Positions 7,061 through 64,000 of a stretch of 64,000 nucleotides of DNA are shown here, piece by piece. The notes beneath the pieces were generated by a model. That model worked only from the letters and a program-made list of their open reading frames with translations, was not told the DNA's origin and did no database searches. The stretch is from assembly GCA_964606165.1 (NCBI GenBank), contig CAZSFQ010000001.1, positions 6,905 to 70,904 on the forward strand, in the 5' to 3' direction. How positions within the stretch are numbered: the stretch's first letter is position 1; each line of letters opens with the position of its first letter. Origin of the DNA: an uncultured Mageeibacillus sp. GTDB taxonomy: Bacteria; Bacillota; Clostridia; Saccharofermentanales; DTU023. A program made the position numbers and the translations under genes.

Positions 7061-7104
7061 CCTGTCACTTTAACTTAACTCGATGATTCTTCCCGGCAGA
7101 TGCC

Positions 7105-46749: not shown

Positions 46750-47331
46750 TCATAGCTCGCCCTCCTCTGTCCGAAGAAGGCGCTCCATCATTTCGTCCTG
46801 TGGACTGCCAATAAAAGCTGTCGTCGTGTTTTGCTTCACGATGTCAAAAATTTCATACCAGATGAGGTTGGCCTGTTTTTGAAATGATTGGCTCATGGAT
46901 ACAAAAGGACTGGCAATCGCACCACCCGTAGTTGGGTGTTTACCTAAAAGCCCGTAGGTACTGATCGCCTGTTCACACTGGATATAGCGAGCAAAAGCCT
47001 GCGAGTAGGATTCCAGAAGTCTCGGGTTCACGAGCTTTTCACAGCGTCGGTCTTTCAGCCATTTCCATGTCTCGGCATAGATTTCATCAGCACCGAGCGG
47101 TTTGCCATCCTTTTGTCTTGCAGAAAGGTAATCCGAAGGACTCGGCATTTCTTCGCCGAAAAGGTCGGACACATCTTCCGGTTCATCCGGAGCAAAGAGT
47201 GCTTCCGGATCAAAATCGTAAGTTTCGAGTATTTTTGCTTCTTTTCCTGCGGCGATTTTATCGGCGAGGGCATCCGGCTTGCTGCCAGCTTTGACTCGTC
47301 TGCCGCCACGGTAAGTTCCGTCTTTTGCCAC
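46750..47331 (-). CDS. terS: terminase small subunit (P27 family)
   Basis: ...WKWLKDRRCEKLVNPRLLESYSQAFARYIQCEQAISTYGLL...SPFVSMSQSFQKQ is typical of the P27 family. The start is GTG 47331 after an AAGGAGGTG RBS. Confidence 0.8.
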   Translation of the reverse strand: MAKDGTYRGGRRVKAGSKPDALADKIAAGKEAKILETYDFDPEALFAPDEPEDVSDLFGEEMPSPSDYLSARQKDGKPLGADEIYAETWKWLKDRRCEKLVNPRLLESYSQAFARYIQCEQAISTYGLLGKHPTTGGAIASPFVSMSQSFQKQANLIWYEIFDIVKQNTTTAFIGSPQDEMMERLLRTEEGEL

Positions 47332-47500
47332 GAAAGCACCTCCTTTCCGGCTTTCTGGGGTTAATCCCCTGTTTGAATTGAAGTTTTTTCGCGCGTGGCC
47401 CACCGCCCGTTGATCGCTTAAGGCGCTCCGGAGATTCACACCCCCCCTGGAGAGGTGCGAAAACTCCAAAGCAAATGAAAACAACTATGAATACACAAGT
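47332..47500. other. candidate cos/packaging-recognition region
   Basis: A 169-nt non-coding, locally GC-rich gap between the HNH and terS genes. It contains a C7/G7 run, the palindrome CTCCGGAG and an imperfect inverted repeat CTCCGGAG...CTGGAG. Confidence 0.35.
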
Positions 47501-48414: not shown

Positions 48415-48922
48415 CGGCAAATTCCTCCTCATAAAATCCGAAGTATTGATGCTGGTCGGCAAAGGTCTCCGCCATGAGTTCAACCGCTTTTGCTTTCTTT
48501 CGGTTAAGCTCCGACCCGCTGATATTAAATTTTTGACAGACCTCACCCCAGCGATGGTCTTCCAAAATTTCAAAGGTCAAAAGGTTTCGGTAGTATCTCG
48601 GCAAAGCCCGGATGCCGTATTTCACAAAATCCACTTCTCGGGCGACCTTGGCGTAGTCCTTTGCCATTTCCTTTTCCGATGCATGATTGATCAGCCAGGT
48701 GAGTCGCTTATAGGATGTGGCAATATAAAAGAGTCGATTCAAAGACCGCTGCTTTTTGATCCTGACATGATCATCGCTCTTGCCGGGAAAGTTCAACATC
48801 TCCAAAACTTCATCAGAGGTGATGGGGACAAAGTCCGTCATTTCCTGCTCCAAGCGTTTCATCTCGGACAGGTTCTCGGGGTAGTCTTTCAGCATCTGCC
48901 GAATGCGTTCAACATGTGCCAT
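48389..48922 (-). CDS. phage sigma-70 region-4-like / ArpU-RinA-like late transcriptional regulator (first copy)
   Basis: The C-terminal HTH is HRWGEVCQKFNISGSELNRKKAKAVELM. The gene lies upstream of the packaging genes. Confidence 0.5.
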   Translation of the reverse strand: MAHVERIRQMLKDYPENLSEMKRLEQEMTDFVPITSDEVLEMLNFPGKSDDHVRIKKQRSLNRLFYIATSYKRLTWLINHASEKEMAKDYAKVAREVDFVKYGIRALPRYYRNLLTFEILEDHRWGEVCQKFNISGSELNRKKAKAVELMAETFADQHQYFGFYEEEFADDHRTDIR

Positions 48923-50261
48923 CGCCGACCCTCGCTTTCACAGCCTGCATCAGGTTTTCCTGGGTCAGGTCTTTTTTCGCCAAAGCCCGGACGACATCCC
49001 GGTCAATCGTGCCCTCGGCGATCAGACGGAAGATGACCACCGTGTCCTTTTGTCCCTGCCGCCAGAGTCTGGCATTCGCCTGTTGGTAAAGCTCTAAAGA
49101 CCAGGGTAGAGAAAACCAGATCACGGTCGAGCCGCCGTGCTGGAGGTTTAAGCCATGCCCCATTGAAGCGGGATGGGCTATCGCCACCGGAATTTCGCCT
49201 CGGTTCCAGGCCTGAAAGTCCTCCGGTGTTTTGATTTCCTGAGTCTCTTTGAAACGCTTTTGAATCCGCTCTTTGTCGTGACGATAGTTGTAGTAAATGA
49301 GGACAGGCTTGCCGTTTGCCGCTTCAATCAGATCCTCCAAGGCATCAAGCTTGGCGGCATGAAGCTCTGCTACCGCCTTGTTCTCGTCATAGACGGCGCC
49401 CGATGCCATCTGCAGGAGCTTGTTGGTCAGCACGGCCGCATTGACCGCATCCACAGTTTTGCCTTCCAGTTTCGCCACCATCTCCCACTCAAGCTCTTTG
49501 TATTTTTCTTTGGCGACAGGAGGGAGCTTGACTGTGACATCCCGCTCCAAGCGTTCAGGCATTTGGAGAAAATCCTGACTTTTCATGGAGACGCAGAGAT
49601 CTGATAAGCGGCTGAAGATCCATTCCTCCGCATGAGGTCTTGGCCGATAGGAATACACGATCCAGCCATTCATGCGGTCGGGCACAAAGAAATCTGCCCG
49701 ATAGGTGCTGAGTGTCTTGCCCAGCCGCTTGCCCTGATCCAAAAGATAAATCTCCGACCAGAGATCCATCAACCCGTTCGTGGACGGTGTGCCTGTCAGT
49801 CCCACCACCCGGTCAATGCCGGGACGCTTTCTGCGAAGCGCCTTGAAACGTTTGCTTGAGGCATTCTTAAAGCTCGAAAGCTCATCGATGACCAGCATGT
49901 TAAAATCCCACTCGCCAAGTTCAGCAAGCCAGGCAACATTCTCCCGGTTAATGACATAGATATCGGCAGGTGTGTTGAGGGCTTCAAGCCGCTGGGCTTC
50001 CGTGCCGAGAACTTTGGAGATTCTGAGATACGTCAGGTGATCCCATTTTTCCAGTTCCTCCGTCCAGGTGTTTTCAGCGACTCGAAGCGGTGCAATCACC
50101 AGCACCTTGCTGATGTCAAAGTAGTCAAACATCAAGTCCCAGATGGCGGAGAGGGTAATCACGGTCTTGCCAAGGCCCGGCTCTAAGAAGAGACCGCAGG
50201 CCTTTTGCTCGATAATTTTCTGCTTGGCATACTTCTGATAATCATGTGCCTTGTATTGCAT
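48909..50261 (-). CDS. SNF2-family DEAD/DEAH-box helicase
   Basis: LEPGLGKT (motif I), VIDELSSFKN (motif II) and the C-terminal helicase motifs QANARLWRQGQ. Confidence 0.9.
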   Translation of the reverse strand: MQYKAHDYQKYAKQKIIEQKACGLFLEPGLGKTVITLSAIWDLMFDYFDISKVLVIAPLRVAENTWTEELEKWDHLTYLRISKVLGTEAQRLEALNTPADIYVINRENVAWLAELGEWDFNMLVIDELSSFKNASSKRFKALRRKRPGIDRVVGLTGTPSTNGLMDLWSEIYLLDQGKRLGKTLSTYRADFFVPDRMNGWIVYSYRPRPHAEEWIFSRLSDLCVSMKSQDFLQMPERLERDVTVKLPPVAKEKYKELEWEMVAKLEGKTVDAVNAAVLTNKLLQMASGAVYDENKAVAELHAAKLDALEDLIEAANGKPVLIYYNYRHDKERIQKRFKETQEIKTPEDFQAWNRGEIPVAIAHPASMGHGLNLQHGGSTVIWFSLPWSLELYQQANARLWRQGQKDTVVIFRLIAEGTIDRDVVRALAKKDLTQENLMQAVKARVGDGTC

Positions 50262-50540: not shown

Positions 50541-50673
50541 TGAACAGGCGTACAAGCTGAACAGGAATTTCCTATATTTACTACGCGCGTGTACGTCTGT
50601 GCCATTTACTCTTTCTCTAGTGTTTTCTCTCAAATAATTAACTAGAGAAGTTGTTCAGCTTGTGACTTGTTCA
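50541..50673. repeat. long-range inverted repeat with nested hairpin between the VapE and VRR-NUC genes
   Basis: TGAACAGGCGTACAAGCTGAACA (50541-50563) pairs with TGTTCAGCTTGTGACTTGTTCA (50652-50673). The cores ACAAGCTGAACA and TGAACA are perfect. An inner 7-bp hairpin CTCTAGT/ACTAGAG lies at 50615-50647, and the palindrome ACGCGCGT starts at 50583. Confidence 0.6.
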
Positions 50674-53000
50674 GTTCTGACGTAGACCCGCTGGCGCCCG
50701 TATATGGGAAGTGTCCTGAGTTTTCCGGTGCGCTCCCAGCCATCGACTTGGACCATCAGGGCGGCGATGGCATAGGAATCAACCGGCTTTAAGTCGGCAA
50801 GATTTCTGCCAAAGCACTCACACCAGATCTCGGCATTGCTGACCTCGGTGCGCCTAATTGAACCTTTGCAAGATGTGATATCGCCTTCGAGATAGTTGCG
50901 TCTGTCGTAGACATCCATATCCGCCCAGTTGTCCGGCAAGAGCCGGGAAAGATACTCCTCAACCAGCCCTTGGCGCTCGTCCGCTTCCATCGCACTCTTC
51001 TGGGCATCTTCCGCCTCCCGCAGGAGGTCGCCTTCCAGATAGAGTTTCTCTCCTTGTTCGTAGTAGTACTTGGCCTCCGCCCAGATCTGGTCCCGCTCCT
51101 CGGGTGTAATCGTCCAGTCCACACGCTGTTCCGTCTGATGGCACTTAATAATCCAAAATCGACGGTTGCCTGTGATGTCACGCAAATAGCCCCGCTCGCC
51201 GTTGACCGTAGCAACGATGATGCACTGCCTGGGATGGCTTTCCACGACCTTGCCATAGCTGGGGCGGTACTTGTCGTCCGCTGTGGATAGAAAGGATTTG
51301 ACCTTTTCGATGTCCGCCTTTTTCATTCCGGCAAGTTCGCTGATCTCGATAATCCAAAAGCCCTGCAGTTTCTCTGCGGCGGATTTATCGCTCATGTCGG
51401 TAAGCGAAAGGGAATCCGAGAAATAATCGTCTCCTGCAAGCGAGCGCCACATGGTGCCCTTGCCGATACCCTGTGCACCGTCGATGACCGTCATGCTGTC
51501 AAACTTCGTGCCCGGCTCATAGATGCGGGCAACCGCCGCAGCTAAGGTCTTCCTCGATACCGTACGGACATACTTCGTGTCGTCCGCCTTCAGGTATTTA
51601 ATAAAGAGCGTTTCCGCCCGTACCTTTTTATCCCAGAGAGGAAGGGAATCCAGATAGTCTCTGACAGGATGAAAGCGCCTGTCATCGGCCACCTTGGTAA
51701 AACTGACGTTATGATTGCGGTCGGAAAAAGGGACATAGCGAACGTCCAGCAGGGCTTTGAGCTGGGCTGTGTCGGCATCCCGCCAGAACTTGTTATCCAG
51801 CGGCCGATCCCAGGGAATCTCACCTGTGACCTGAACCCGATGCGCCATCTCGTTGTAGGCAAAACCGGCAAAGTCGGGGTCATTGTTTAAGATCAGCATT
51901 TCGTTCCAGACGCTGTTTTGCAGGACTGTGCTTCTGGACATGTACTGGAGATCTTTTTGCCAGTCTGCATTCTCTCTGCCAAAATCCTCTCCGGCCTGCT
52001 TTCGCTTTTCTTCCATGCCACGGAGCTTCACCTTGTCGAGCGACATGGCAAATTCGCACATCTGATTGAAGCTTTTCTTGTCGTCACCGAACTTATGCAG
52101 GCGTACCAAATCAAAAGCATTGCAGAGTTTCAGATAGGCGATATCTTTTGCGTGATGGCTGTAGACAAACTTGCCGTCCTCTTTGATCTCGACACCGGGC
52201 AGGCTGTCCGAGCCAATCAGGTGGTAGCGGTTGGGATTGTCCGTTGCTTCATAGATCTCCGGCAGCAGCTCCTCCATTGCCGCGCTGATGGGAAAATAGG
52301 TGCGGTTGAAAAGACCGACCACACCTGTTTTTGTGAGCGGGTCCTGTACCTTTTTTACTTCCGTTGAATTGGCCCTGCTCTCCCTTGAGGAAGTAGGCAG
52401 CTGTGCAGGATCTTTCCAGCCCGGGTGTTTTGCAAGGATATTGTCAGGATCAAGCCAGTCTTTATCGGCTTCTTTGAAAACATACTCACCGTTGGAAGGC
52501 GTGCTTGGCCAGTACATGAGCTGGTTGGAAAGATAGGAGCAGGAATCAAAATAATCGATGCCAAGCATGTCCGCAAGAAAGCGTGCCACAGCGACAAATT
52601 CTTCCGCCGTCACATCCCTTGTAAGCGGGAAGATAATCCTGATTCTCGGGGCTTCCGGCGTATGGCTGTGAGTCGTATAAAAGCAGGACGCATAAGGTGT
52701 TAGCGACTCAAAGTTCTCAAGAAACTCCGGCTCAATATAATCACCGTCAAGCGCAATCATGGAGCGGGAAGCCACAGTATTGGAGAGCCTTCGTCCTCCG
52801 ACCAGAACCCCGGCAACAAAACCGCCGTGATTTTTGGCCGTCTGCCGCTCAGCTTTCGTCATGCGTTTGTATTCTTCAGCGGACTCAGGTGTACGGATGG
52901 TGACCTTGAGCCGCTCCTTTAATTCATCAAAGGTGATGGTCTTATTGGACCATTTCTTGGCGTAGCAGCTGCTGCCATAGGCAATTGGCAAATCTCTCAT
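50655..53000 (-). CDS. VapE-family (virulence-associated protein E) primase-helicase-like replication protein
   Basis: Walker A VIDGAQGIGKGT, and a Walker B-like segment in FWIIEISELAGM. The size and N-terminal region are typical of phage VapE proteins. The start is ATG 53000 after a GGAGGAGG RBS. Confidence 0.85.
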   Translation of the reverse strand: MRDLPIAYGSSCYAKKWSNKTITFDELKERLKVTIRTPESAEEYKRMTKAERQTAKNHGGFVAGVLVGGRRLSNTVASRSMIALDGDYIEPEFLENFESLTPYASCFYTTHSHTPEAPRIRIIFPLTRDVTAEEFVAVARFLADMLGIDYFDSCSYLSNQLMYWPSTPSNGEYVFKEADKDWLDPDNILAKHPGWKDPAQLPTSSRESRANSTEVKKVQDPLTKTGVVGLFNRTYFPISAAMEELLPEIYEATDNPNRYHLIGSDSLPGVEIKEDGKFVYSHHAKDIAYLKLCNAFDLVRLHKFGDDKKSFNQMCEFAMSLDKVKLRGMEEKRKQAGEDFGRENADWQKDLQYMSRSTVLQNSVWNEMLILNNDPDFAGFAYNEMAHRVQVTGEIPWDRPLDNKFWRDADTAQLKALLDVRYVPFSDRNHNVSFTKVADDRRFHPVRDYLDSLPLWDKKVRAETLFIKYLKADDTKYVRTVSRKTLAAAVARIYEPGTKFDSMTVIDGAQGIGKGTMWRSLAGDDYFSDSLSLTDMSDKSAAEKLQGFWIIEISELAGMKKADIEKVKSFLSTADDKYRPSYGKVVESHPRQCIIVATVNGERGYLRDITGNRRFWIIKCHQTEQRVDWTITPEERDQIWAEAKYYYEQGEKLYLEGDLLREAEDAQKSAMEADERQGLVEEYLSRLLPDNWADMDVYDRRNYLEGDITSCKGSIRRTEVSNAEIWCECFGRNLADLKPVDSYAIAALMVQVDGWERTGKLRTLPIYGRQRVYVRTEQVTS

Positions 53001-53002
53001 AC

Positions 53003-53320
53003 TCAAACCTCCTCCGTGCCGATGTAGCGAACAGGAATGTCGAGCTCCTGCGCCTTCTTGATTTCCTGCCACATGCCGATGGTGATTTCCCGTCCGAAGA
53101 CCCAGAGTTCACTGCACCTCTGTAAGATTCCAAAGTTCATCTCAAGAGCCTGCTTCCGCTCCTCCGACTCGTTGTCATCCAGGAACTGAGGGAATAGAAG
53201 ATGCGGTGCGATGGGGATGAATCCCTTGTCCACGACGTGGCGGCAATACCGTCTCGCCCGTTCTGTGTTTGTCTCGATCTCGCCCCGGTAAGGCGAGCAG
53301 ACAAAAATCATCTGTTTCAT
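53003..53320 (-). CDS. DUF4406/DUF1937-like protein (nucleoside 2-deoxyribosyltransferase-like fold)
   Basis: IFVCSPYRG...IAPHLLFPQF...CSELWVFG pattern. Confidence 0.45.
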   Translation of the reverse strand: MKQMIFVCSPYRGEIETNTERARRYCRHVVDKGFIPIAPHLLFPQFLDDNESEERKQALEMNFGILQRCSELWVFGREITIGMWQEIKKAQELDIPVRYIGTEEV

Positions 53321-53440: not shown

Positions 53441-54319
53441 TTACTCGGTGGCTTCAATATCTTTTAGGGTTTTCCCGGATTCATCTTTCCACATGACGTT
53501 TCCGCTTAAAGATGACCCACCAACGAAACCCGCGGCAGCAGAAGGGCTGGTAAACAGCAAATCAGCCATTAAAAATCCTTGATCATCAATTTTCCCTGCA
53601 TATTTCTCACGATAGTTGATGACATTGTCAGGACAGCTTTTCGTCATAGAAAGAGAAATCTTGCTTCCGGCTAAAACGACAAATCCCTCCGGTGTTCGTT
53701 TCCCTGTGGCTTCGGCCTTCGTGGTCTTGAAATACAAGTTAGGTTCATCGTCAATGGGACTAATCTCAATCACTGTAGGCTTGCTGGCCACTATGGGCTC
53801 AAAAACCTTGTAGCCTAGGGCTCCCATGACTAGTTTTGCGTAGGAGATAAACTCCTCCAGCTCACTCTCTTTTTCTTCAGTGGTGTTGCCGGGGCTTGGG
53901 TCATTGCCATTTTTGACTGAATAGCGTTTCGCATCAATCGCCATGTTACAAAAACGATTTTCTAAATAACTGATTTCCGTTGGGCCGAATGAATTATTTG
54001 AAGTGGTGAAGGCAACGGCCTCCGTCCAATAATCCATCTTGCTGTCACGGCGATGCTCATCCAGACGACAGAGGATGCCCCGCCCGTTCTTGCGAATACC
54101 TGCCTGGCCGATATAGACAACAGGGTCTCCGCTATCATCGGAAGTGCCGAAAAGAAAGTAGACACCTGTCTGGTCAAGATAAGTGATCTCCCGTGCCTTA
54201 TCCAGCATGGTGCGTGGAATTTTATAGGCGATACCGGTCCAGTTGGCCAACGTGCATTTGATGCGACCGGAAGCGTCTCCGTCCATCAGGAATAAATTGA
54301 TGTTTTTACCTCTTTTCAT
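53441..54319 (-). CDS. GIY-YIG nuclease-like domain protein with DUF4357-like C-terminal domain
   Basis: GVYFLFG...VVYIGQAG...R..EH...KMDYWTEA is a GIY-YIG-like core. The C-terminal GFVVLAGSKIS...SPSAAAGFVGGSSLSGNVMWK is typical of DUF4357. The start is ATG 54319 after a GGAGGTG RBS. Confidence 0.7.
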   Translation of the reverse strand: MKRGKNINLFLMDGDASGRIKCTLANWTGIAYKIPRTMLDKAREITYLDQTGVYFLFGTSDDSGDPVVYIGQAGIRKNGRGILCRLDEHRRDSKMDYWTEAVAFTTSNNSFGPTEISYLENRFCNMAIDAKRYSVKNGNDPSPGNTTEEKESELEEFISYAKLVMGALGYKVFEPIVASKPTVIEISPIDDEPNLYFKTTKAEATGKRTPEGFVVLAGSKISLSMTKSCPDNVINYREKYAGKIDDQGFLMADLLFTSPSAAAGFVGGSSLSGNVMWKDESGKTLKDIEATE

Positions 54320-54346
54320 GCTTAGAGCCACCTCCAAAATCACATG

Positions 54347-57300
54347 TTAGGTTTCATCTGTAAATGGTGCCTTACCTTCAGCAACCGAAAGATATTTCAA
54401 ATCTTCCGATTTAATTTTCGGATATTCACGATTTAAGCTCTGGTCACTACTCGACAAATCATCTTGATTGACGTATGGCTTCCCCTCCGTGTTATAGGTC
54501 AAATTGAAAACCAAATCAGAGAGCCATTTTTTGAAGGAAGGATTATCCTGAAATTGCTTAAACAGCTCCATATTGTCGGACATGATGGAAAAAATTACCT
54601 GCTGCAGGGCGCGTTCACTTTCAGTACGTGCCTCCTGCTCGTCGGAATTTTTCATAGCGTTCTGATATTGCTTGTTCTTAGATACCATGGCAGGAATTTC
54701 AAGAATTTGACGCTGTACATTATCCGCATCTTTCCAGTTGATGTTCCCAAACATATCATTAAAATCCAGGATGATCTTAGAAAGTAGATCCATTTCAGGC
54801 TCAACAATGAAGCCTACTTTGCCTGCGGGAACGGGTGGTATTTCGGCGTCCTCATCTTCAAGCTTTATGGAAATTGCTTCTCTTGCTTCGTTTCGATAGC
54901 TGCCCAGATCAACCGTAGAAAGGATACCTTCAGATAGATCATCTGTGCCTGGAGATGGCAGCTTGGGAATGAGTAAATTTAGAAAGATGGAGAGCCTCTC
55001 CCAGTCGATATTTCCGTAGGGCAAAATCGAACCCAGAAAACCATACGTGCGAACGAAAGACTTGGCCGCACTTTTGAACTTGATTTGATCATCTACTTCC
55101 AGCTGCTTATAGACAGCCGTACAGGCATCGAGAATGGGATCAAGCCTGTCGCGCTCTGCCCCGTTCAGAAACAGCTCAACCAGTGTTTCAACATGATCGT
55201 TGTCATAAACCTGATAACTTTCCATCAAGGAAATAAGGTCATATAGCTTGTTTGGGTCAGTTTCTCCGGACAAAATGGTTGTCCTGTAAAATTTGGAAAA
55301 TGCAGCCTCAATGACAGAAGTTTTATTAGCAAAATCAAGAACATAAACATCATGTTTGCCAGGATAAGATCTGTTGAGCCGCGAGAGTGTCTGAACCGCT
55401 GCGATGTCATAAAGGGGTTTATCCACATACATCGTCTGCAGCAGGGGTTCGTCAAATCCGGTTTGAAACATGTCAGCTACAATAAGTATGCGAAAGGGGT
55501 CTTTTTTGAATTCCTTAGGTATTTTTGCATCCGGAAAGCCATTGAGCGCCGCAGATGCAAGGGCAGGTTCCAGCCCCTTGTACTTGTGTTCACCGGAAAA
55601 GGCAATAATGGTTTTATAAGGGCTGCGTCGTTCTGCGAGACATTTGTTGATGGCATAGTAATACTCAACACAGCGCCCTATACCTGCCGTTACCACCATC
55701 GCTCTTGCCTGACCGTTTATTTTCCTCTTGGCTATAATCTGTTCATGAAAGTGCTCGACTATCATAGCCGCTTTTTTGGCAATGACATCTGAGTTACCCT
55801 CGACAAAGCTACGTAGTTTCTTTTGTGCCCGCTTCTTGTCAAACATGGGATCATCTTCAACCGTTTTCATGATTTTGTACCAGGAATCTATGGTTGTGTA
55901 ATTCTTTAACACATCGAGAATGAAACCCTCCTGGATAGCCTGCTTCATCGTGTAAACGTGGAAAGGACGGTGTTTTATTTCCCCGTCGACCTCATACATG
56001 GTGCCAAACATTTCCTCAGTCTTATTTTTAGGCGTTGCCGTGAAAGCAAAATAGCTGGCCTTGGGTACGAGTTTGCGCCCTTCCATCATGGCATTGATTT
56101 TGTCTTCATTGTCCAGCTCATCCATTGCAGCCTGACCAGAAAGTGCCAGGTTCATCTGGGCGGAATTTCGGCCACTTTGACCTGAATGTGCTTCGTCAAT
56201 GATGATGGCAAATTGATTGTCTTTGTGCGCCTGACCCAGCTCAGAAATAATATAGGGAAATTTTTCGATCGTGGTCACGATGATTCGTTTGCCATCTTGA
56301 ATGGCCTGGCGCAAATCACGAGAATACTCTGCCCACGCAACAGTATTCTTGACCTGCATAAATTGTTTGATTGTATCTCTGATTTGCTTATCCAAAATCC
56401 GCCTGTCAGTCACAACCAGCACAGAATCAATCATAGGACGACCACCCTCTTCCAGTCCTATGAGCTGGTGAGCCAGCCAGGCGATAGAATTGGATTTCCC
56501 ACTGCCGGCGCTGTGTTGGATGAGATATCGTTTCCCGACGCCACTTAGTTTGACATCCGCTAAAAGCTTTTCTACGCAATCTAACTGATGGTAACGCGGC
56601 CAGATTTGTTTGATGGTCTTCTTCTTGGTATCAGGATCCACTTCTTCAGTGACCTGGGCATAATTCTCAATAATGCGGGATAGCTTCCTTTTGGTCAGAA
56701 TATTCTTCCACAGATAGTCCGTCATCAAACCATCCGGATTGGGCGGGTTTCCTGCACCATCGTTATAACCTTTATTGAAGGGTAAAAACCAGCTGTCTTT
56801 TCCTGCGAGTTTTGTGCAAAACTGAATCGTGGCATCATCCACAGCAAAGTGGACGATACAGCGTTTAAAATGAAAGATTAGATCACGCGGATCTCGATCT
56901 TCTTTATACTGGCGCACAGCATCTTCCGTTTTTTGCTTGGTCAGTTGATTTTTTAGCTCCATGGTGATGACCGGAAGACCATTGATGAACAAACAAAGGT
57001 CAAGAGCGAGCTTTGTCGCATCCTGCGAATAACGAAGCTGCCGTGTCACGCTGAAGATATTTTTCTCCCACATGAGCTTTGCTTGCCGATTGTTTTCAGT
57101 TGGCGTCAGATAAAACATGATTAGGTCAGCAGGATAAACCTTGACGCCCTTGCGTAGCACATCAATAATGCCACGCTTGGCAATCTCTCCGGACAGGCGA
57201 TTAAGAAATTGTCGCTTCTTTGTATCCGATTTGAAGACACCTAGTTTTTCCATCTCTTCCGGCTGAGTGTCTTCGAGGAAGCGAAATAAGCGAGTCTCAT

Positions 57301-57424
57301 CAACTGCATATGCTTTATTGTAGTCTGCGTTTATCCCCTCCTCGTAATCATTGGATTCAACCAGATATTTTACGATTAAGGATTCAAGACCACTTTCTTT
57401 GGTGTTGGAAAAAGCCATACTCAA
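54347..57424 (-). CDS. hsdR: type I restriction enzyme R subunit
   Basis: An N-terminal nuclease region, then QHSAGSGKSNSIAWLA (motif I), IIIDEAHSGQ (DEAH), and a helicase C-terminal half. Confidence 0.95.
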   Translation of the reverse strand: MSMAFSNTKESGLESLIVKYLVESNDYEEGINADYNKAYAVDETRLFRFLEDTQPEEMEKLGVFKSDTKKRQFLNRLSGEIAKRGIIDVLRKGVKVYPADLIMFYLTPTENNRQAKLMWEKNIFSVTRQLRYSQDATKLALDLCLFINGLPVITMELKNQLTKQKTEDAVRQYKEDRDPRDLIFHFKRCIVHFAVDDATIQFCTKLAGKDSWFLPFNKGYNDGAGNPPNPDGLMTDYLWKNILTKRKLSRIIENYAQVTEEVDPDTKKKTIKQIWPRYHQLDCVEKLLADVKLSGVGKRYLIQHSAGSGKSNSIAWLAHQLIGLEEGGRPMIDSVLVVTDRRILDKQIRDTIKQFMQVKNTVAWAEYSRDLRQAIQDGKRIIVTTIEKFPYIISELGQAHKDNQFAIIIDEAHSGQSGRNSAQMNLALSGQAAMDELDNEDKINAMMEGRKLVPKASYFAFTATPKNKTEEMFGTMYEVDGEIKHRPFHVYTMKQAIQEGFILDVLKNYTTIDSWYKIMKTVEDDPMFDKKRAQKKLRSFVEGNSDVIAKKAAMIVEHFHEQIIAKRKINGQARAMVVTAGIGRCVEYYYAINKCLAERRSPYKTIIAFSGEHKYKGLEPALASAALNGFPDAKIPKEFKKDPFRILIVADMFQTGFDEPLLQTMYVDKPLYDIAAVQTLSRLNRSYPGKHDVYVLDFANKTSVIEAAFSKFYRTTILSGETDPNKLYDLISLMESYQVYDNDHVETLVELFLNGAERDRLDPILDACTAVYKQLEVDDQIKFKSAAKSFVRTYGFLGSILPYGNIDWERLSIFLNLLIPKLPSPGTDDLSEGILSTVDLGSYRNEAREAISIKLEDEDAEIPPVPAGKVGFIVEPEMDLLSKIILDFNDMFGNINWKDADNVQRQILEIPAMVSKNKQYQNAMKNSDEQEARTESERALQQVIFSIMSDNMELFKQFQDNPSFKKWLSDLVFNLTYNTEGKPYVNQDDLSSSDQSLNREYPKIKSEDLKYLSVAEGKAPFTDET

Positions 57425-58773
57425 TCCTCCTCATTTTCAAAATCTGAGTCAGCCGGATCTTCATCAAGATCTTCGTCAAACTCTTCTTCGATATATTCAA
57501 AATCAGGAACCTTTACATCTCGTACGTCAATCTGACCGGTGACAACATCGGAGATGAGACGGGATTTGAGTTCGTGCAGAAGATCTACTTTTTCATGTTT
57601 TTTATCAGTAAGTTCATCAATCTTCTTCAGTTGATTATCTATTTGGGACAATATTTTCTTTTGATTATTTAAATTTGGAACATCTAGTTTGATTGACAAT
57701 AGTGCATTCATGTCTAAATTTTGAATACCAGTAGTCTGCTTTATTATCCTTCTAATGTCGCCTGTAAAGTGCAACAAATGAAGATTTAATAACGCATACT
57801 TCGGGCCTATTACTCTTTCATCTATCCTTAAACACTGTAAAAAGTTCGCAAACAAAGCCTTATATGGCTTATCAAAAATTACCGTCCGTCCAACAGGGGT
57901 TTTATCTCCGCCGCCAGACTTTTCAACCAAGATATCCCCTTTTTGTAATGTCAACTCGTCAATTTCTTTTTGAGTATAGTATCGATGTGTAAGTTGTTCC
58001 GGCTTGGTATTTACAAATTGTCCAGACATGAAATCCATATCAGCAACACGCAGGCAGATACACTGTTTTTTATCCTCAGCGTTGTCAGAACCCCACGATC
58101 CTGTCAGATTTTTCATTAACAGCCGTTTCAAGGGTATTTGACGGGTATCGTTAGCTGATTTTAAGGTATCAGCAATTACCTTTTTTCTTGCTTCTTGTAA
58201 AAGTGCAAGCTGTTCTGAACATATTCTTATCAGCCGATTGATCTCCGACACTTTCCAGTCCAGATAACGTACAATTTGATCCTGTTCTTCTCGAGGAGGA
58301 ACGGGAAGCTTAGTGGACATAAACGATTCAATTTTTATTGTTTTTCTTAAGCCAGTATAAAGTGGCTTGAGCCCCTTCACTTTATCTATCGATAAATAGA
58401 AGTAATAAACGAAACGAGAATTTATATTATGCACGTGCATAATATTATAAGCACCTGTCAGCATTCCATCAAATGCTGACAATCCAACTGTTCTAGGCGT
58501 TTCATCGATATCAAAAAGACAAAACGCCATATCACCTTTTTTTACAATTTTATATTTATCAAAAGATGCAGGGAATTTTCCCTTAGGATTATCTATATCT
58601 CTCGGAACTATCCCATTCAGTGTCAATGACAGAAGAGTGTAACTGCTGTGATCATTTCCAACTTCATCCTTTGATTCTATAAAAACATTTTTGTTACGCC
58701 ACAATTCCCAATGGGACGGAACAATTCTTACCCACTGAATATCAGTATTCTTATAATCCTCATACCTCCTCAT
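57421..58773 (-). CDS. hsdS: type I restriction enzyme S (specificity) subunit
   Basis: Two target-recognition-domain halves separated by conserved coiled-coil spacers (REEQDQIVRYLD... / ...LNNQKKILSQIDNQLKKIDEL). It has 4-nt overlaps with both hsdM and hsdR. Confidence 0.9.
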   Translation of the reverse strand: MRRYEDYKNTDIQWVRIVPSHWELWRNKNVFIESKDEVGNDHSSYTLLSLTLNGIVPRDIDNPKGKFPASFDKYKIVKKGDMAFCLFDIDETPRTVGLSAFDGMLTGAYNIMHVHNINSRFVYYFYLSIDKVKGLKPLYTGLRKTIKIESFMSTKLPVPPREEQDQIVRYLDWKVSEINRLIRICSEQLALLQEARKKVIADTLKSANDTRQIPLKRLLMKNLTGSWGSDNAEDKKQCICLRVADMDFMSGQFVNTKPEQLTHRYYTQKEIDELTLQKGDILVEKSGGGDKTPVGRTVIFDKPYKALFANFLQCLRIDERVIGPKYALLNLHLLHFTGDIRRIIKQTTGIQNLDMNALLSIKLDVPNLNNQKKILSQIDNQLKKIDELTDKKHEKVDLLHELKSRLISDVVTGQIDVRDVKVPDFEYIEEEFDEDLDEDPADSDFENEED

Positions 58774-60776
58774 GCCAGATCCTCCAGTAAGCCTTCCAAC
58801 AGCCCGTCTGACTCGTTTTCTATCTGTTTCAGCTCTTTAATGATTTCTGCCATTGGTCTAAGTTCGATGGGTTTATAGAAGTACTTGGTAAAGCTGACTT
58901 CATAGCCGATTTGGGTTTTCTTTTCGTCTATATATGCGTCTGGTGCATAAGGGTACACTTCCTTTTCCATGAAGGCGTTGATGCCACCATCATAGGTGAA
59001 AGGGATCAGCTCGGTATCCCTAAGATCCGTATCGGCTTCACCGTCTACTGCCTTTGCCGATGCGTCTTTTTCTGTGATGAAGGGTTGAATTCTCTTCAGC
59101 ATGGCGGCTTTAAGCCCCGTAGCTTTAGCAAAGGCGGTCCAGTCATCCAAAGAGCCAACAGTTGCTGCTTTCTTTACGGCTTGCCGTACTTCTTCCGGTT
59201 TATCATTCTTTCTAAAAGCACTGTCCGGGACTTCATTTTCTGGATGGACACGCAGCCTAAGTGGTCGATCCACGATAACCGACCAATAAGCAAAATCCTT
59301 GTTTAAGAAAACCTTACTGACTTCACTCTCTTCCATATCACAGAAGATGCGGACGATTTCTTTGCGAATTTCCGGTGTGAATTTGCAATTCTTTTTCCCC
59401 ATGTTCTTTTTTAGCGGCGATTTCATAGCCGTCGCATCAATCAGCTGAACTTTGCCTTTGCGCCGCTCTTCTTTTTTATTGGACAGAATCCAGATATAGG
59501 TGGCAATCCCCGTGTTATAAAACATGTTCTCCGGTACGGCGACAATGGCTTCTACGAGGTCGTTCTCAAACATGTAGCGTCGGGCATTGCTCTCACCGCT
59601 GCCGGCATCTCCCGTGAATAAAGACGACCCGTTATGGACCTCGGCAATCCTGCTGCCGATTTCCGTATCTTGCTTCATTTTGGAGATATTGTTTAGTAAA
59701 AAGAGTAGCTGTCCGTCGCTCACACGCGGCAGCATCTGCATCGCCTCTCCACCCTCCAAATAGGCATTGAAGCGGGTGTCCAGAATATTTTTCTTGCCTC
59801 CCATTTTTTCAGCGTCCGTTTTCCAACTTTTGCCGTAGGGCGGATTAGAGAGCATGAAGTCAAAAGACCGTGCAGCATGCTGGTCATCGGAAAGTGTAGA
59901 CCCATACATGATATGCTGGGCTTCTTCTCCATCCCCTTTGAGGAGTAAATCAGCCGTGCAGATGGCGTAGGTTTCAGGATTTATTTCCTGGCCAAAAAGG
60001 TGGATGGATACGTCTTTGCCACGCCTTTGGGCAAGAGTTTGCAGCCTGTCCTGGGCAACAGTCAGCATTCCGCCTGTGCCGCAGGCTCCGTCATAGCAGG
60101 AATAAGAAGCGTCCATTATTTTGTCGGCAATCGGCACAAAGATGATATCCGCCATGAGCTCTACGACATCACGTGGAGTCCAATGTTCTCCGGCTTCTTC
60201 ATTATTTTCTTCATTGAACTTGCGAATCAATTCTTCGAAAATCGTACCCATACTATGATTGTCCAGCCCCGGATGTTTGAGTATCGTTTTTTCTTCGTCC
60301 AGGTATACCGGTTTGGGGCTTAAATTGATTTCGGAGGAGGTAAATTTCTCAATAACGGAACCCAAGATATCTGCATCGATCATGGTGTCAATCTGGTTTC
60401 GGAATTTAAACTTGTCAAGAATAAGTTGGACGTTGGGAGAAAAGCCATCTAAATAGGCAATAAAGTCAGCTTTTAAGGTTTGAGCCTTTGCACGGCTGGT
60501 AAGGTCTTTCAGAAGGAATGGTGATGCATTACAGAAGGCTTCCCCAGCGGCATTGCAAAGTGCAGGCCACTGGTTATCAATCTTGGCAGCATCAAGTTGT
60601 TTTTTCATTTTAAGAACGTCATCTTTTGTGTCTTCCAGTACGGCATCTAAACGCCTAATAACCGTCATTGGGAGAATCACGTCGCGATACTTTCCGCGTA
60701 CATAAACATCGCGCAAACAGTCATCGGCAATACCCCATATAAAACTGACAATTTTATTGTAAGTCTGATTATTCAT
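58770..60776 (-). CDS. hsdM: type I restriction-modification system M subunit (N6-adenine methyltransferase)
   Basis: The HsdM N-terminal domain is IVSFIWGIADDCLRDVY..GKYRDVILPMTVIRRLD. DGACGTGGML is motif I and NPPYG is motif IV. Confidence 0.95.
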   Translation of the reverse strand: MNNQTYNKIVSFIWGIADDCLRDVYVRGKYRDVILPMTVIRRLDAVLEDTKDDVLKMKKQLDAAKIDNQWPALCNAAGEAFCNASPFLLKDLTSRAKAQTLKADFIAYLDGFSPNVQLILDKFKFRNQIDTMIDADILGSVIEKFTSSEINLSPKPVYLDEEKTILKHPGLDNHSMGTIFEELIRKFNEENNEEAGEHWTPRDVVELMADIIFVPIADKIMDASYSCYDGACGTGGMLTVAQDRLQTLAQRRGKDVSIHLFGQEINPETYAICTADLLLKGDGEEAQHIMYGSTLSDDQHAARSFDFMLSNPPYGKSWKTDAEKMGGKKNILDTRFNAYLEGGEAMQMLPRVSDGQLLFLLNNISKMKQDTEIGSRIAEVHNGSSLFTGDAGSGESNARRYMFENDLVEAIVAVPENMFYNTGIATYIWILSNKKEERRKGKVQLIDATAMKSPLKKNMGKKNCKFTPEIRKEIVRIFCDMEESEVSKVFLNKDFAYWSVIVDRPLRLRVHPENEVPDSAFRKNDKPEEVRQAVKKAATVGSLDDWTAFAKATGLKAAMLKRIQPFITEKDASAKAVDGEADTDLRDTELIPFTYDGGINAFMEKEVYPYAPDAYIDEKKTQIGYEVSFTKYFYKPIELRPMAEIIKELKQIENESDGLLEGLLEDLA

Positions 60777-60990
60777 CTGCCTCTCCCTCTCTTATAGTTT
60801 CAACGATATCGTTAAGTTCAACATCTAAAGCACTGCAAATCCTCATCAGGACATCGGTTGTCACGTTTTCATCTTTGCCAAGCTTGGCAAGAGAAGATGA
60901 GCTTATACCTGCGGCTTTTCTGAGATCGGTCTTGGTCATATCTTTGTCAATTAGCAATTTCCAAAGCTTCTTATAGCTTGTCTTCATCAT
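60769..60990 (-). CDS. small XRE/Cro-type HTH protein linking the ABC-3C cassette to hsdM
   Basis: The HTH is MTKTDLRKAAGISSSSLAKLGKDENVTTDVLMRICSALDVELNDIV. Its stop overlaps the hsdM start by 8 nt, and its start is 7 nt after the ATPase stop. Confidence 0.75.
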   Translation of the reverse strand: MMKTSYKKLWKLLIDKDMTKTDLRKAAGISSSSLAKLGKDENVTTDVLMRICSALDVELNDIVETIREGEADE

Positions 60991-60997
60991 ATTGTGA

Positions 60998-62632
60998 TTA
61001 CCCCTTGTTCCATGAGGTTCCATATAACTCACCTCCATTATCTGAAAGCTCCAGAGCTGTATTTGCTTCAACGATTCTTGCAGTGTCCTCCGTATAGGAA
61101 AGATGCTTATCAAAAGCTATAAAAATCTGTTTTTCACTGCGGTCATAGATTTTCATGATGCCGTCGACGGAGCTGTCGCCCACGTTTTTCAAAAGCAGTG
61201 AGTCGTGTGCAATGGCTGGAAGGTCGGTAAGCTCAAGCACCGCCAGATCATATAGAAGCAGACCTTTATAATTCGTTCCGGTGCCTGTGTCATGTGGCGT
61301 CTGAAAACGATAGCTGTTGTATTCATTAAATTTCAGAGTAGGAGCCCTTCGCCTATCTTCAAAGAGCGAATCATTATATTCTTTCATCTTGCCATTTAAG
61401 GCATCCTCTATTTCAGCAAGAATAACTGTCGTTGCCTGCTTTAATAAATCGTTAGCCTTTTTCTGTGCAGCTTGCAGTTCTGTCAATTTCAGGTACGCAT
61501 CATTCTGTCGCTGAAGCGCATCGATCCTGCCCTTTAAATCTGAATAACTGTCGAGAAATTCTTGAGAAAGGTCGCCGAAAAAGCCAAGCTCTAAAATCTG
61601 ATCCTTAATCTGTTTTATTTGCTCACGCAGAAACTCTATATGATGGCTAACCTCTAGTCTTTCTTCTTCGAACTGATTGTCCAGAATCCTCGCCAATTTG
61701 CGATGGTAGCCTTCCACCTCGTAAATTTTTCTGACATCAGCCTTCGGAAAAAACTCTTGTAATGCATTAAGATCAGCTTCAGTCGGATAGAGACCGTACT
61801 CAAGACTCATATCCAAAAGTTTCATTTTTCGTTCAAATGCGGAGAGCTGATTTTCCAGCTCCATCTGTTCTCGCTTCAGTTGGCGCTTGGCCTGACTTTT
61901 TTCAATATCATCACGAGAATTTGTCTCTACCTGATCGTTCTCCAGGTTCTCCAATTGAATTCGGAGCTCATTTATTTGAGACAGGTTGTTTTCAAATTGC
62001 TCTTTTCCGCCAACCAGAGCCGGTACAAATTGATAATTTCGAGCTTTTCTAAATACAGATAGTTGCTCCCTTTGCTCATCCTTCCTGGTATTCAGCACCT
62101 CAATTTGTTGGTAACGATCAAAAAGGCAAATAACCCGTTTAATTGATCTTTCCATGGTGTCGCCCTGTATTCCGTATAGTGGTTTTTTCTCATCCAGATT
62201 GTCTTTACCATAGATTCGAAAAAAGCCACTGATCGCTTCACGGAATGAGATGCCATGAAAATCAGCTTGATAATTTTCCTGAAGCCACATTAAAAACTCG
62301 GCCTTTTCCCAGGTTTCTTCTGTCAGGTTATTTTTGTCATCACATAGGTGTATTAGATCCGGTGTTTTGGTCGAACGGGCAAATCTCTGCTTTTTACCAT
62401 TGAATTCAAAAGCAAAGAATATAGTATGGTCTCCCAGATGCTTAACACCATCACTTGTGAGATAGCTTGAGCCACCGAAGACAAAATCAATGGCAAGCAG
62501 TGCAGAGGATTTTCCAATGGAGTTTGTTCCGTCCGCTTTTCCCAATATGACGTTTAAGCCTTTATGGAATTTTATGGGTTTGCGTACCTGATCTCCTATT
62601 TTAAATGCCGGAGAACTCATCTCTATAAGCAC
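60998..62632 (-). CDS. SMC/Rad50-like ABC ATPase with long coiled-coil insert (DUF2326-type; ABC-3C ATPase component)
   Basis: The N-terminus GLNVILGKADGTNSIGKSSALLAIDF is a Walker A. About 300 aa of heptad-rich helix follows. The C-terminal GLLLYDLAVLEL...IAHDS is a Walker B/D-loop-like region. Confidence 0.65.
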   Translation of the reverse strand: MLIEMSSPAFKIGDQVRKPIKFHKGLNVILGKADGTNSIGKSSALLAIDFVFGGSSYLTSDGVKHLGDHTIFFAFEFNGKKQRFARSTKTPDLIHLCDDKNNLTEETWEKAEFLMWLQENYQADFHGISFREAISGFFRIYGKDNLDEKKPLYGIQGDTMERSIKRVICLFDRYQQIEVLNTRKDEQREQLSVFRKARNYQFVPALVGGKEQFENNLSQINELRIQLENLENDQVETNSRDDIEKSQAKRQLKREQMELENQLSAFERKMKLLDMSLEYGLYPTEADLNALQEFFPKADVRKIYEVEGYHRKLARILDNQFEEERLEVSHHIEFLREQIKQIKDQILELGFFGDLSQEFLDSYSDLKGRIDALQRQNDAYLKLTELQAAQKKANDLLKQATTVILAEIEDALNGKMKEYNDSLFEDRRRAPTLKFNEYNSYRFQTPHDTGTGTNYKGLLLYDLAVLELTDLPAIAHDSLLLKNVGDSSVDGIMKIYDRSEKQIFIAFDKHLSYTEDTARIVEANTALELSDNGGELYGTSWNKG

Positions 62633-62847
62633 AAAAACACCTCGCCTTCATCTGACATATCAATTGCTCTGAGAGCATACAGACAATCCATTACTGCTAG
62701 AAAATCTGTCGCTTCACTCAGTCTTGGTCTTGTCATAATATATAATTCACGAACGGATTTGGATCCGTCCTTCAACTCATTCAGCACCTCCGGTATCAAA
62801 GCCAAGGTGCTGTTTTTATATGAGTACAATTTATTCGGTAATTGCAT
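62623..62847 (-). CDS. small (74-aa) middle-component-like protein of the ABC-3C cassette
   Basis: The internal ATG 62847 gives MQLPNKLYSYKNSTLALIPEVLNELKDGSKSVRELY..., which is winged-helix-like. The gene overlaps both neighbours (17 and 10 nt). Confidence 0.45.
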   Translation of the reverse strand: MQLPNKLYSYKNSTLALIPEVLNELKDGSKSVRELYIMTRPRLSEATDFLAVMDCLYALRAIDMSDEGEVFLCL

Positions 62848-63979
62848 CAAACACCTCACAGCTCTGGATGAAATAGGAGACGACAACCTGGCAGTAAATA
62901 ATTTCTTGAAGCGTCTGTCTGTGGATCTTTTCAGCGATCTCAGCAAAGATCTCCATTTGATTTTTATTCTTTTTGGAGAGGCCCCTATATATAGCATGTA
63001 TCTGGTTTTGCAAGCTCTCGTAGTCAATTTCTCCTCGTTTATCGAGGTTCATCATAATTTCACGAACAGTTACGAAGTAGCTGAGCACAAAATTTTTTAC
63101 CGTCAAATATAAGAGATGCTCATGAGAAGAATCGATCTTCTTAGTCAGTTCCTTGGGATCAAATGACACTTCCTCAAAATCCTGCATTTGGAGCTTTTTT
63201 ATTCTCGTAACTACACCGACAATGCCTCGTTCTAGTGGCAACTCGTCAAGCATTTGAATAATCTGTCGTCTTGCTAAAAGTGTTTTCTTCACTGCTTTCA
63301 GTTCTTTGCATTTTTTCTTGTTGTCGTCCAGTGAGTACGTTGCGTAGCAGCAAGGACACATCGCAAGCAAGTTTTCTGGGCTGGCTTTCACGTTTTTGTC
63401 GATTAAGCCTACCTCGAAGAAAGATGCAGCTTTATGGTTTGCTGTGACTACGAGCGATCGACCGCAACCTGGAAAAGGACAAGTGTTTTCAGCCTCAGCA
63501 AGAAGATAATTGCCGTATTGATTTTTCAAATCCAAGGCCAGCTGAGCTTGTTGCTGTGCTTCTAATTTGCTTTGAGATACCAAGCCGGCCGATTGTTGAA
63601 TAACACTGACCATCAATTCAGAAACTTTTTCTCCAACATTTTCGGCATTAATAGTTGAGTCGTAACTTTGCAAATCCTCGGCTAACAATTTACGTTGAGT
63701 TTCATTTCGCTCATTAATTCTCTCTGTCAAAAATTCCGGTGTCAGCCGATACACGATATTTTTTGCCAGTGTCTTTGACAAACCCCTCTTTGAGTAGTTT
63801 CGAAGCGTTTCATCTTTCATCTTTTTAGAAGGATCTTTCGACGTGCCCCACTCTTCCTCAGCAACAGTCGTAATCATGGCCATCAGTTCACGGAAAAAAT
63901 AGGGAACAGCATCTCCATCCGCCATATGCTTTTTTAGAATTTTAAATAGCATTTGAAAATTCAAGGCCATTGTCTCCAT
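62831..63979 (-). CDS. ABC-3C effector-like protein: helical N-terminus, CxxxxC...CxxC zinc knuckle with degenerate HNH-like spacing, conserved helical C-terminal domain
   Basis: Contains CPFPGCGRSLVVTANHKAASFFEVGLIDKNVKASPENLLAMCPCCYATY. The C-terminal tail is ...IIYCQVVVSYFIQSCEVFD. It is the first gene of the coupled block. Confidence 0.5.
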   Translation of the reverse strand: METMALNFQMLFKILKKHMADGDAVPYFFRELMAMITTVAEEEWGTSKDPSKKMKDETLRNYSKRGLSKTLAKNIVYRLTPEFLTERINERNETQRKLLAEDLQSYDSTINAENVGEKVSELMVSVIQQSAGLVSQSKLEAQQQAQLALDLKNQYGNYLLAEAENTCPFPGCGRSLVVTANHKAASFFEVGLIDKNVKASPENLLAMCPCCYATYSLDDNKKKCKELKAVKKTLLARRQIIQMLDELPLERGIVGVVTRIKKLQMQDFEEVSFDPKELTKKIDSSHEHLLYLTVKNFVLSYFVTVREIMMNLDKRGEIDYESLQNQIHAIYRGLSKKNKNQMEIFAEIAEKIHRQTLQEIIYCQVVVSYFIQSCEVFDAITE

Positions 63980-64000
63980 CCTTTAGATTTTGAACCACGC

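Follow-up and report, generated by a model that had tools for sequence, protein, structure and literature searches.

Gene content and boundaries of the cassette

We analysed a 64,000-nucleotide (nt) stretch of DNA, here called the window, from an uncultured Mageeibacillus sp. (contig CAZSFQ010000001.1, positions 6,905 to 70,904), and describe a cassette of minus-strand genes near its end that resembles the Lamassu defence systems. Three overlapping genes, lmuA, lmuC and lmuB, are followed by a fourth gene encoding a small helix-turn-helix (HTH) protein. These genes, together with the domains of the LmuA effector, are as follows (aa, amino acids):

62831..63979, minus strand: lmuA-like effector gene, 382 aa, start possibly 63970 or 63964 (open reading frame, Pfam, PADLOC, PHROG)
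63545..63979, minus strand: N-terminal helical domain of LmuA, aa ~1–145 (PADLOC matches at aa 6–144 to LmuA and aa 7–134 to HamA1)
63305..63532, minus strand: HNH-derived Cys4 zinc module of LmuA, aa ~150–225 (C167, C172, C208, C211)
62849..63256, minus strand: CTD11, the C-terminal domain of ABC-3C/Lamassu effectors, aa 242–377 (Pfam PF20277)
62623..62847, minus strand: lmuC-like middle-component gene, 74 aa, MC7 (Pfam, PHROG)
60998..62632, minus strand: lmuB-like gene for a Rad50/SMC-like ATP-binding cassette (ABC) ATPase, 544 aa, GTG start (Pfam, PADLOC, PHROG)
60769..60990, minus strand: Cro/C1-type HTH_26 (XRE) gene, 72–73 aa (Pfam HTH_26, 3.9e-19; VanU-like NCBIfam match)

A preliminary description of this DNA had reported three minus-strand genes overlapping by 17 and 10 nt, and both the coordinates of the open reading frames and their junctions agree with it. 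The lmuA stop codon (TAA, 62831–33) lies inside lmuC, whose ATG at 62847 is preceded by the ribosome-binding site GAGGTG, giving the 17-nt overlap; the lmuC stop codon (TAG, 62623–25) in turn overlaps the lmuB GTG at 62632 by 10 nt, with GGCGAGG ahead of that GTG. The open reading frame of lmuC extends over 62623–63027 (minus strand), and the 74-aa product starts at the ATG at 62847. Gene order and translational coupling of the cassette are established by these junctions. Since each of the three reading frames has strong Pfam, PHROG and homologue support, they are real genes rather than chance frames. Three start codons are available for lmuA (ATG 63979, ATG 63970 and TTG 63964); either of the latter two may be the true one, as homologues start where residue 4 or 6 of the window protein would be. 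These include the 98%-identical protein P0001, which was used in place of the window LmuA where a database record was needed, the exact sequence having none. The window ends 21–36 nt upstream of lmuA (positions 63964–64000), and the lmuA promoter therefore lies outside it.

The middle component and the ATPase

LmuC matched the Pfam family MC7 (PF20292) at 5.5e-24 (84 bits against a cut-off of 27) and phrog_6259 at 2e-31, and its gene lies between lmuA and lmuB in all related loci. In the Streptococcus phage phiStag1 the LmuC/MC7 homologue (10125–10349) is labelled 'MafI family immunity protein' in GenBank; as NCBIfam shows no such match for the window LmuC, this label is probably a mis-annotation.

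For the 544-aa LmuB the preliminary description had proposed searches with profile hidden Markov models, and these matched DUF2326 (1.6e-16, 60.7 bits) and the Rad50/SbcC-type N-terminal AAA_23 family (1.2e-6, 29.7 bits against a cut-off of 27) in Pfam. The ABC-3C assignment made there, naming the ABC-three-component class, was thereby borne out for all three proteins, with CTD11 in LmuA, MC7 in LmuC and DUF2326 plus AAA_23 in LmuB. Its suggestion to look in NCBIfam and PADLOC succeeded in one of the two: PADLOC returned LmuA and LmuB models, with modest E-values (for LmuB, 5e-9 and 7.5e-9, plus 8e-11 for PDC-M68B), while no NCBIfam model matched any of the three core proteins at E ≤ 0.1. LmuB also falls in phrog_5467 (7e-165), and all three core proteins belong to full-length PHROG families of unknown function.

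LmuB carries the motifs of a split ATPase. The Walker A motif G35TNSIGKS42 (nt 62507–62530) is invariant from N37 to S43 in 21 homologues, and so are a deviant Walker B, AIAHD477-S478 (nt 61199–61216), and a signature-like motif, D448TGTG. A coiled coil of about 300 aa had been proposed between the two halves; a helical insert is indeed present, its helicity read from the sequence, but it measures about 250 aa and has a conserved non-helical apex at about aa 276–312, visible both in the sequence and in the invariant columns. No CxxC zinc hook was found in the LmuB sequence or in the invariant columns of the 21 homologues.

The effector LmuA

LmuA is built of three separable modules: the N-terminal helical domain, the HNH-derived Cys4 module and CTD11. 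It falls in phrog_6948 (6.8e-135), has more than 470 clusters of homologues, and matched the PADLOC LmuA model PDLC03857 at a modest 1.4e-11. The same model was matched by 61 of the 71 relatives, with identity down to 21%, that make up our LmuA alignment. CTD11 was detected at 1.5e-37 in the window protein and in every one of the 71 relatives, with the conserved C-terminal motif C363...YF.Q372.C374EVF. By analogy with characterised Lamassu effectors, this domain would mediate docking and oligomerisation.

The N-terminal domain aligned with the first 142 of the 327 positions of PDLC03857 (61/71 relatives) and also with the N-terminus of the long Hachiman HamA1 model of PADLOC (11/71 relatives), and in proteins P0147 and P0131 it is joined to other C-termini. 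These matches suggest a domain that is mobile among defence effectors. A Foldseek search of the PDB with an AlphaFold2 model gave no fold match for it, and no invariant polar residue or conserved polar catalytic set was seen in it across the 71 relatives. Fusions of this domain to fragments of a non-ribosomal peptide synthetase (P0138), HsdS (P0157) and LmuB (P0181) were set aside, as they look like assembly or frameshift chimeras rather than true architectures. In the P0157-type fusion the HsdS C-terminus closely resembles the tail of the window HsdS, and P0181 contains the C-terminal half of LmuB; the three metagenomic proteins are probably assembly chimeras or deletions joining cassette genes with their neighbours.

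The sole invariant residues in the alignment are L159 and the four cysteines C167, C172, C208 and C211; I193, N203, A206 and K231 are kept in at least 90% of the sequences, and D194 and E162 in 82%. When searched against PDB sequences, a profile of the Cys module matched the HNH domain of EcoKMcrA (7.2e-7) and ScoMcrA (1.6e-3); with a full-length LmuA profile the McrA matches were non-significant, and they became significant after cropping to the zinc module. The LmuA model used here was computed from the 71 diverse sequences (pLDDT 90.4, pTM 0.78) and replaced a first one based on 37 close homologues (pLDDT 69.7), which was poor in the C-terminal domain. It shows strands at 177–207 followed by a helix at 209–216, and in Foldseek its best PDB matches were the HNH domains of Cap5 and EcoKMcrA, with probabilities of 0.97–1.0 and weak E-values of 0.17–0.7. 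Cas9-HNH and PacI were also among the matches of the LmuA models, and a BFVD search matched phage HNH proteins. The cysteines, the model, the Foldseek matches and the profile together describe a beta-beta-alpha fold with a Cys4 zinc site. The McrA profile matches, the Cap5/McrA structural matches and the phage HNH proteins in BFVD indicate that the module descends from an HNH nuclease, in line with the HNH-like spacing first noticed in the four-Cys module. The strings quoted at that time (CPFPGC, ENLLAMCPCC, TANHK, VVSYFIQSCEVFD and, in LmuB, GLNVILG followed by G35TNSIGKS42) are all present.

The residues on which HNH catalysis depends are a different matter. In an ungapped HMMER alignment H228/H229 of McrA stand opposite Y188/E189 of LmuA, and E189 is a Glu in only 62% of the relatives. 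If the alignment is shifted, H229 falls opposite position 192, which is variable (L/I/V/T/K/R/Q and others) and is a His only in P0176, one of the 61 relatives having the Cys module. In none of the alignments tried was a catalytic general-base His conserved among the 71 relatives. The metal-binding His is not kept either: McrA H252 lies opposite position 212, a Tyr in the window protein and Y/H/F/A/S/C/Q/W or another residue in its relatives. The structural Asn is retained, with N203 (90% of the 71 sequences) opposite the DN motif of McrA. The preliminary description had been unable to find the His-Asn-His triad, and the canonical His proves to be missing from the window protein and family-wide. 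Judged from the alignment, this loss of the HNH catalytic histidines is ancient and common to the family, not a recent lesion. We accordingly rejected the candidate function of LmuA as an active HNH nuclease.

A conserved fourth gene

The cassette had been described as a three-gene unit. The three genes stand, but the unit continues past position 60998 into the HTH gene, which begins 7 nt past the lmuB stop codon and whose own stop codon overlaps the ATG of hsdM, in a type I restriction-modification (RM) operon, by 8 nt. Among the 74 related loci with enough sequence beyond lmuB, 71 carry this HTH gene directly after lmuB, even where LmuA identity is only 26–33%; the three that lack it still have LmuA, LmuC and LmuB. 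The HTH protein is the best conserved component, with a median identity of 64% across the related loci (LmuC 53%, LmuB 46%, LmuA 42%), and its divergence tracks that of the other three (Spearman 0.70–0.75, 64 loci). Its presence in 71 of 74 loci and its co-divergence with LmuA, LmuC and LmuB indicate that the conserved unit consists of four genes. By analogy with other small XRE regulators, the HTH protein most likely autoregulates a potentially toxic operon together with the cargo genes that are read through behind it.

Relation to characterised defence systems

ABC-3C, CTD11 and MC7 were reportedly defined by Krishnan et al. in 2020. The preliminary description was not aware of any experimentally characterised ABC-3C system, a view that is outdated.

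Several papers equate ABC-3C with type II Lamassu (LmuA/LmuC/LmuB, DdmABC), for which phage and plasmid phenotypes and cryo-EM structures exist. Lamassu-family systems occur in roughly a tenth of prokaryotic genomes and protect against phages, the ATPase, the effector and LmuC all being needed; plasmid phenotypes are known too. According to three structural studies, one LmuA has its oligomerisation domain sequestered by LmuC and a dimer of LmuB; the complex binds DNA ends, and LmuA, once released, assembles into an active tetramer. So far this mechanism has been elucidated solely for subtypes whose effector is an active Cap4 nuclease.

By sequence, the window cassette belongs to this type II (short) Lamassu, or ABC-3C, family. 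It has a Rad50-like ATPase with Walker A and B halves and a long helical insert, a middle component encoded between effector and ATPase, and an effector with an ABC-3C-class C-terminal domain; it also sits among defence genes on a mobile element, with a type I RM operon downstream, a cargo slot and a prophage around it. Where a toxic enzyme would be expected in LmuA, there is an HNH-derived fold from which the catalytic and metal-binding His are absent family-wide, next to an N-terminal domain without a known fold. The order of effector, small middle component and SMC/Rad50-like ATPase is that of V. cholerae DdmABC/LmuACB and S. enterica LmuACB (PDB 9hqx), and, as in type II Lamassu, the effector ends in an ABC-3C-class domain and the middle component comes from an ABC-3C MC family. 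Like its V. cholerae counterpart, LmuB combines a canonical Walker A with a deviant Walker B, in which D precedes S/Q/T/E, and lacks a zinc hook; Haudiquet et al. (PNAS 2025) give the short-Lamassu Walker B as hhhhD[Q/S/T/E].

Several features set the window cassette apart. The V. cholerae DdmABC proteins have ABC-3C domains CTD7 and MC3, whereas here we find CTD11 and MC7; LmuC has only 74 aa, and LmuB 544 aa against an average of about 600 for short LmuB. In place of the active Cap4 nuclease of the solved systems, LmuA has a helical domain and an HNH-derived module without catalytic His, and, unlike the V. cholerae and S. enterica systems, the cassette includes a conserved fourth HTH_26 gene. 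Haudiquet et al. (PNAS 2025) name HNH as one of the effectors found specifically in short Lamassu. In their clade O, LmuB and LmuC persist without the effector domain, which has been lost, and the clade is still filed as Lamassu; their main text mentions neither lost catalytic residues nor a fourth HTH gene. The window family could be the short-Lamassu HNH subtype, and it is functionally close to the effector-less clade.

Outside Lamassu, the zinc module with its flanking helices is closest in structure to the CBASS effector Cap5 (HNH-SAVED; PDB 8fmh, 9dif), with probability 1.0 over ~112 columns at a root-mean-square deviation of ~3.4 Å; identity in sequence is only ~17%, and the Foldseek E-values of 0.17–0.7 are weak. 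Both proteins are defence effectors, and the matched Cap5 entries are described as activated tetramers, which parallels the tetramerisation of LmuA. Cap5, however, is an active HNH nuclease under the control of a SAVED domain and a cyclic nucleotide, while the window LmuA has neither SAVED domain nor catalytic His and would instead be controlled by LmuB and LmuC. EcoKMcrA and ScoMcrA have the Cys4 zinc site and the structural Asn in common with LmuA, but the positions of EcoKMcrA H229 and H252 are not conserved in the LmuA family; a PADLOC model for type IV restriction endonucleases was matched by 15 of the 71 relatives. Finally, in the PADLOC candidate system PDC-M68 (Payne et al. 2024), PDC-M68A matches aa 154–378 of LmuA, that is, the zinc module plus the C-terminal domain, and PDC-M68B matches LmuB. 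These matches are weak (8e-5 and 8e-11), and the PDC-M68A model, at 253 aa, is without the N-terminal helical domain.

Proposed mechanism and alternatives

We consider it likely, with fairly high confidence, that the cassette is a short type II Lamassu (ABC-3C) defence system carried by a prophage and composed of LmuA, LmuC, LmuB and the conserved XRE/HTH_26 protein. By analogy, it is most likely an abortive or interference system that would use the release-and-oligomerise mechanism of Lamassu. As in the solved systems, a dimer of LmuB together with LmuC would hold one LmuA monomer inactive by sequestering CTD11, and the complex would bind, under the control of ATP, to DNA ends or to replication intermediates from phages or plasmids that invade the cell. 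LmuA would then be released and oligomerise through CTD11, bringing its N-terminal modules together. The oligomer would most likely still act on DNA, either as a non-canonical nuclease or nickase or as a binder that blocks replication or packaging without cutting. The superinfecting element would be stopped, probably at a cost to the cell, and the small HTH protein would autoregulate the operon and the read-through cargo. An action of LmuA on DNA is our best guess because the DNA-nuclease fold, the zinc site and D194, N203, K231 and E162 are kept; our confidence in any particular output chemistry is much lower than in the overall reading.

Several observations weigh against this interpretation. 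The residues that HNH enzymes need are absent from LmuA, and the 71 relatives reveal no other conserved catalytic constellation, which leaves the killing step unsupported. With HMMER, LmuB had no detectable sequence similarity to the solved LmuB chains among PDB sequences, whether searched singly or as a 21-sequence profile, and the PADLOC E-values of the window proteins are modest. CTD11 had no confident Foldseek match to the C-terminal domains of solved LmuA structures (9hqx_A appeared at probability 0.10 with the first, low-confidence AlphaFold2 model and not at all with the 71-sequence one), so the transfer of the mechanism rests on homology at the family level. We found no publication in which a CTD11/MC7/DUF2326 system or an HNH-type Lamassu is put to the test, and no phenotype is known for the subtype. 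Inverted repeats upstream of lmuA in four loci had no element in common that would mark a shared operator, and the role of the HTH protein is something we purely infer.

Related to the absence of catalytic residues is the idea that the subtype works without an enzymatic effector, oligomerised LmuA (a dead HNH module plus the helical domain) binding DNA or, with the XRE protein, switching transcription of the prophage or of its downstream defence cargo. We regard this as unlikely, but if it were true an SMC-like sensor of DNA ends would have changed from a trigger of cell death into a means of signalling or blocking.

The strongest competing explanation takes up the transcriptional variant: a Lamassu sensor repurposed as a switch, in which a non-enzymatic LmuA, acting with or against the HTH_26 protein, changes transcription once DNA ends are sensed. 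Its targets would be the downstream defence cargo or the divergent sigma-factor and replication genes, and the outcome a regulatory response (induction, cargo derepression or immunity) rather than an abortive one. This would fit the family-wide loss of HNH catalytic residues from a module whose zinc site and fold are kept, the lack of a conserved polar catalytic set in the N-terminal domain, and the near-constant, best conserved and co-diverging HTH gene. The cassette is moreover usually divergent to sigma-70 and replication genes, cargo is translationally coupled behind the HTH gene, and a Lamassu clade without effector domain is reported by Haudiquet et al. Yet a regulatory Lamassu has no precedent, toxic defence operons often have small XRE genes as their autoregulators, the upstream regions of the four loci have no conserved operator, and three loci keep LmuA, LmuC and LmuB without the HTH gene; we find such a switch quite unlikely.

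The cassette might, alternatively, belong to the DNA metabolism of the phage, as an SbcCD/Rad50-like complex for end processing or recombination during the prophage's own replication. Upstream of it there usually lie, in divergent orientation, a sigma-70-like gene and a replication module comprising DUF2800 (Cas4-like), an Enc34 single-stranded DNA-binding protein, PolA and VapE; this module adjoins the cassette in 48 of the 61 loci having at least 5 kb of upstream sequence. The core proteins are in PHROG families, and an origin of Lamassu from SbcCD has been proposed (Haudiquet et al., PNAS 2025). However, the four-gene cassette occurs in only 4 phage records, from three Streptococcus phages and a Ruminococcus phage, against 1671 with a DUF2800 neighbour gene, and is absent from close phage relatives such as Javan618, indicating that it is accessory cargo; on this distribution we rejected a core function in phage replication. 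Transcription of the cassette is also divergent or separate from that of the replication genes and runs in the same direction as RM, BREX or Druantia cargo, and the cassette proteins match Lamassu/ABC-3C-specific families rather than SbcC or SbcD. A role in phage DNA metabolism is therefore very improbable. One related phage record is classed in Ca. Heliusvirales.

That the cassette is a decaying remnant that does nothing, its effector having lost the active site, is hardly credible. The HNH catalytic residues are missing, but they were lost long ago and throughout the family; no reading frame is disrupted, all four Cys stay invariant with many positions conserved down to 21% identity, the four genes co-diverge across 64 loci, and near-identical LmuA copies (98–99%) are present in other samples.

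The Lamassu kind and its general mechanism are already known, as is the existence of the subtype through Pfam CTD11 and MC7 and the PHROG families. The family-wide catalytic loss, the fourth HTH gene and the position of the cassette at a fixed edge (see below) appear new; we did not find them in the literature examined, though the first two may already be in the ABC-3C-defining paper or in the supplement of a survey. A nuclease fold minus its catalytic residues makes LmuA a natural test of Lamassu outputs other than a conventional enzyme, and bears on how the effector-less clade might work.

Neighbouring cargo and prophage setting

Downstream of the cassette lies a complete type I RM operon:

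54347..60776, minus strand: type I RM operon (open reading frames with 4-nt overlaps)
58770–60776, minus strand: hsdM
57421–58773, minus strand: hsdS
54347–57424, minus strand: hsdR

With the 8-nt overlap of the HTH gene and hsdM and the 4-nt overlaps of hsdM, hsdS and hsdR, seven co-directional defence-related genes are tightly packed. The RM operon is neighbouring cargo and not part of the Lamassu unit. Counterparts of the window hsdM, hsdS and hsdR directly follow the HTH gene in other loci, and elsewhere the same slot holds a Dcm-type methylase with an Eco29kI nuclease, Druantia DruA, BREX BrxC (twice), type III methylases (twice), a type II methylase, MzaB, the OLD-like ATPase HEC-01A or an IS66 element (loci L002, L008, L015, L021, L025, L028, L041, L048, L081 and L085). 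The four-gene cassette is thus the constant edge of a variable defence-cargo slot. Since the HTH gene stays with LmuB before BREX, Druantia or an IS66 element alike, we rejected its being a controller (C) protein of the downstream RM operon. A four-gene unit beside a swapping slot offers a practical anchor for mining prophage defence hotspots, and raises the question of whether the XRE protein controls both the Lamassu genes and the cargo.

Relatives of the cassette gave at least 549 confirmed matches in species-representative genomes, mostly of Bacillota and also of Actinomycetota (Gardnerella, Corynebacterium). Gut and host-associated Bacillota and Actinomycetota, and their prophages, commonly carry the subtype, and we read the intact four-gene cassettes across at least 549 matched stretches, together with their co-divergence, as purifying selection. 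In the 98%-identical locus L001 (region 6169–7113) a divergent Sigma70_r4/GerE-like gene lies upstream, followed by DUF2800, Enc34 and PolA; given these neighbours and the divergent PolA and VapE arms of the cassette-less Javan618, cassette and RM operon appear to sit between two replication arms.

The window is mostly prophage, from about 24500 to 64000, with host genes such as feoB below about 19 kb. Its other features include:

53441–54343: DUF4357 protein (phrog_12629)
50655–53072: VapE primase-helicase, prophage
48909–50261: SNF2 helicase, prophage
46750–47484: small terminase, prophage
45586–46722, minus strand: S-adenosylmethionine (SAM) synthetase, between the small and large terminase genes
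44361–45602, minus strand: fusion of a ParB N-terminal domain and an N6/N4 DNA methylase, adjoining the SAM synthetase gene
40995–42599: large terminase, prophage
39752–40873: portal, prophage
37844–39040: capsid, prophage
29380–31905: tail endopeptidase-like protein, prophage
26128–28590: GH18-domain protein, prophage
24516–25667: amidase-LysM endolysin, prophage
13527–14600, plus strand: HTH_3 and Peptidase_M78 (ImmA/IrrE-like) protein, outside the prophage
537–1811, minus strand: Schlafen AlbA_2 and HATPase_c_4 protein, outside the prophage

The SAM synthetase and the ParB-methylase fusion may serve as a pair in self-protection or anti-restriction. Proteins of the Schlafen AlbA_2 and HTH_3/Peptidase_M78 types, both encoded here outside the prophage, are often tied to mobile elements or to the regulation of defence.

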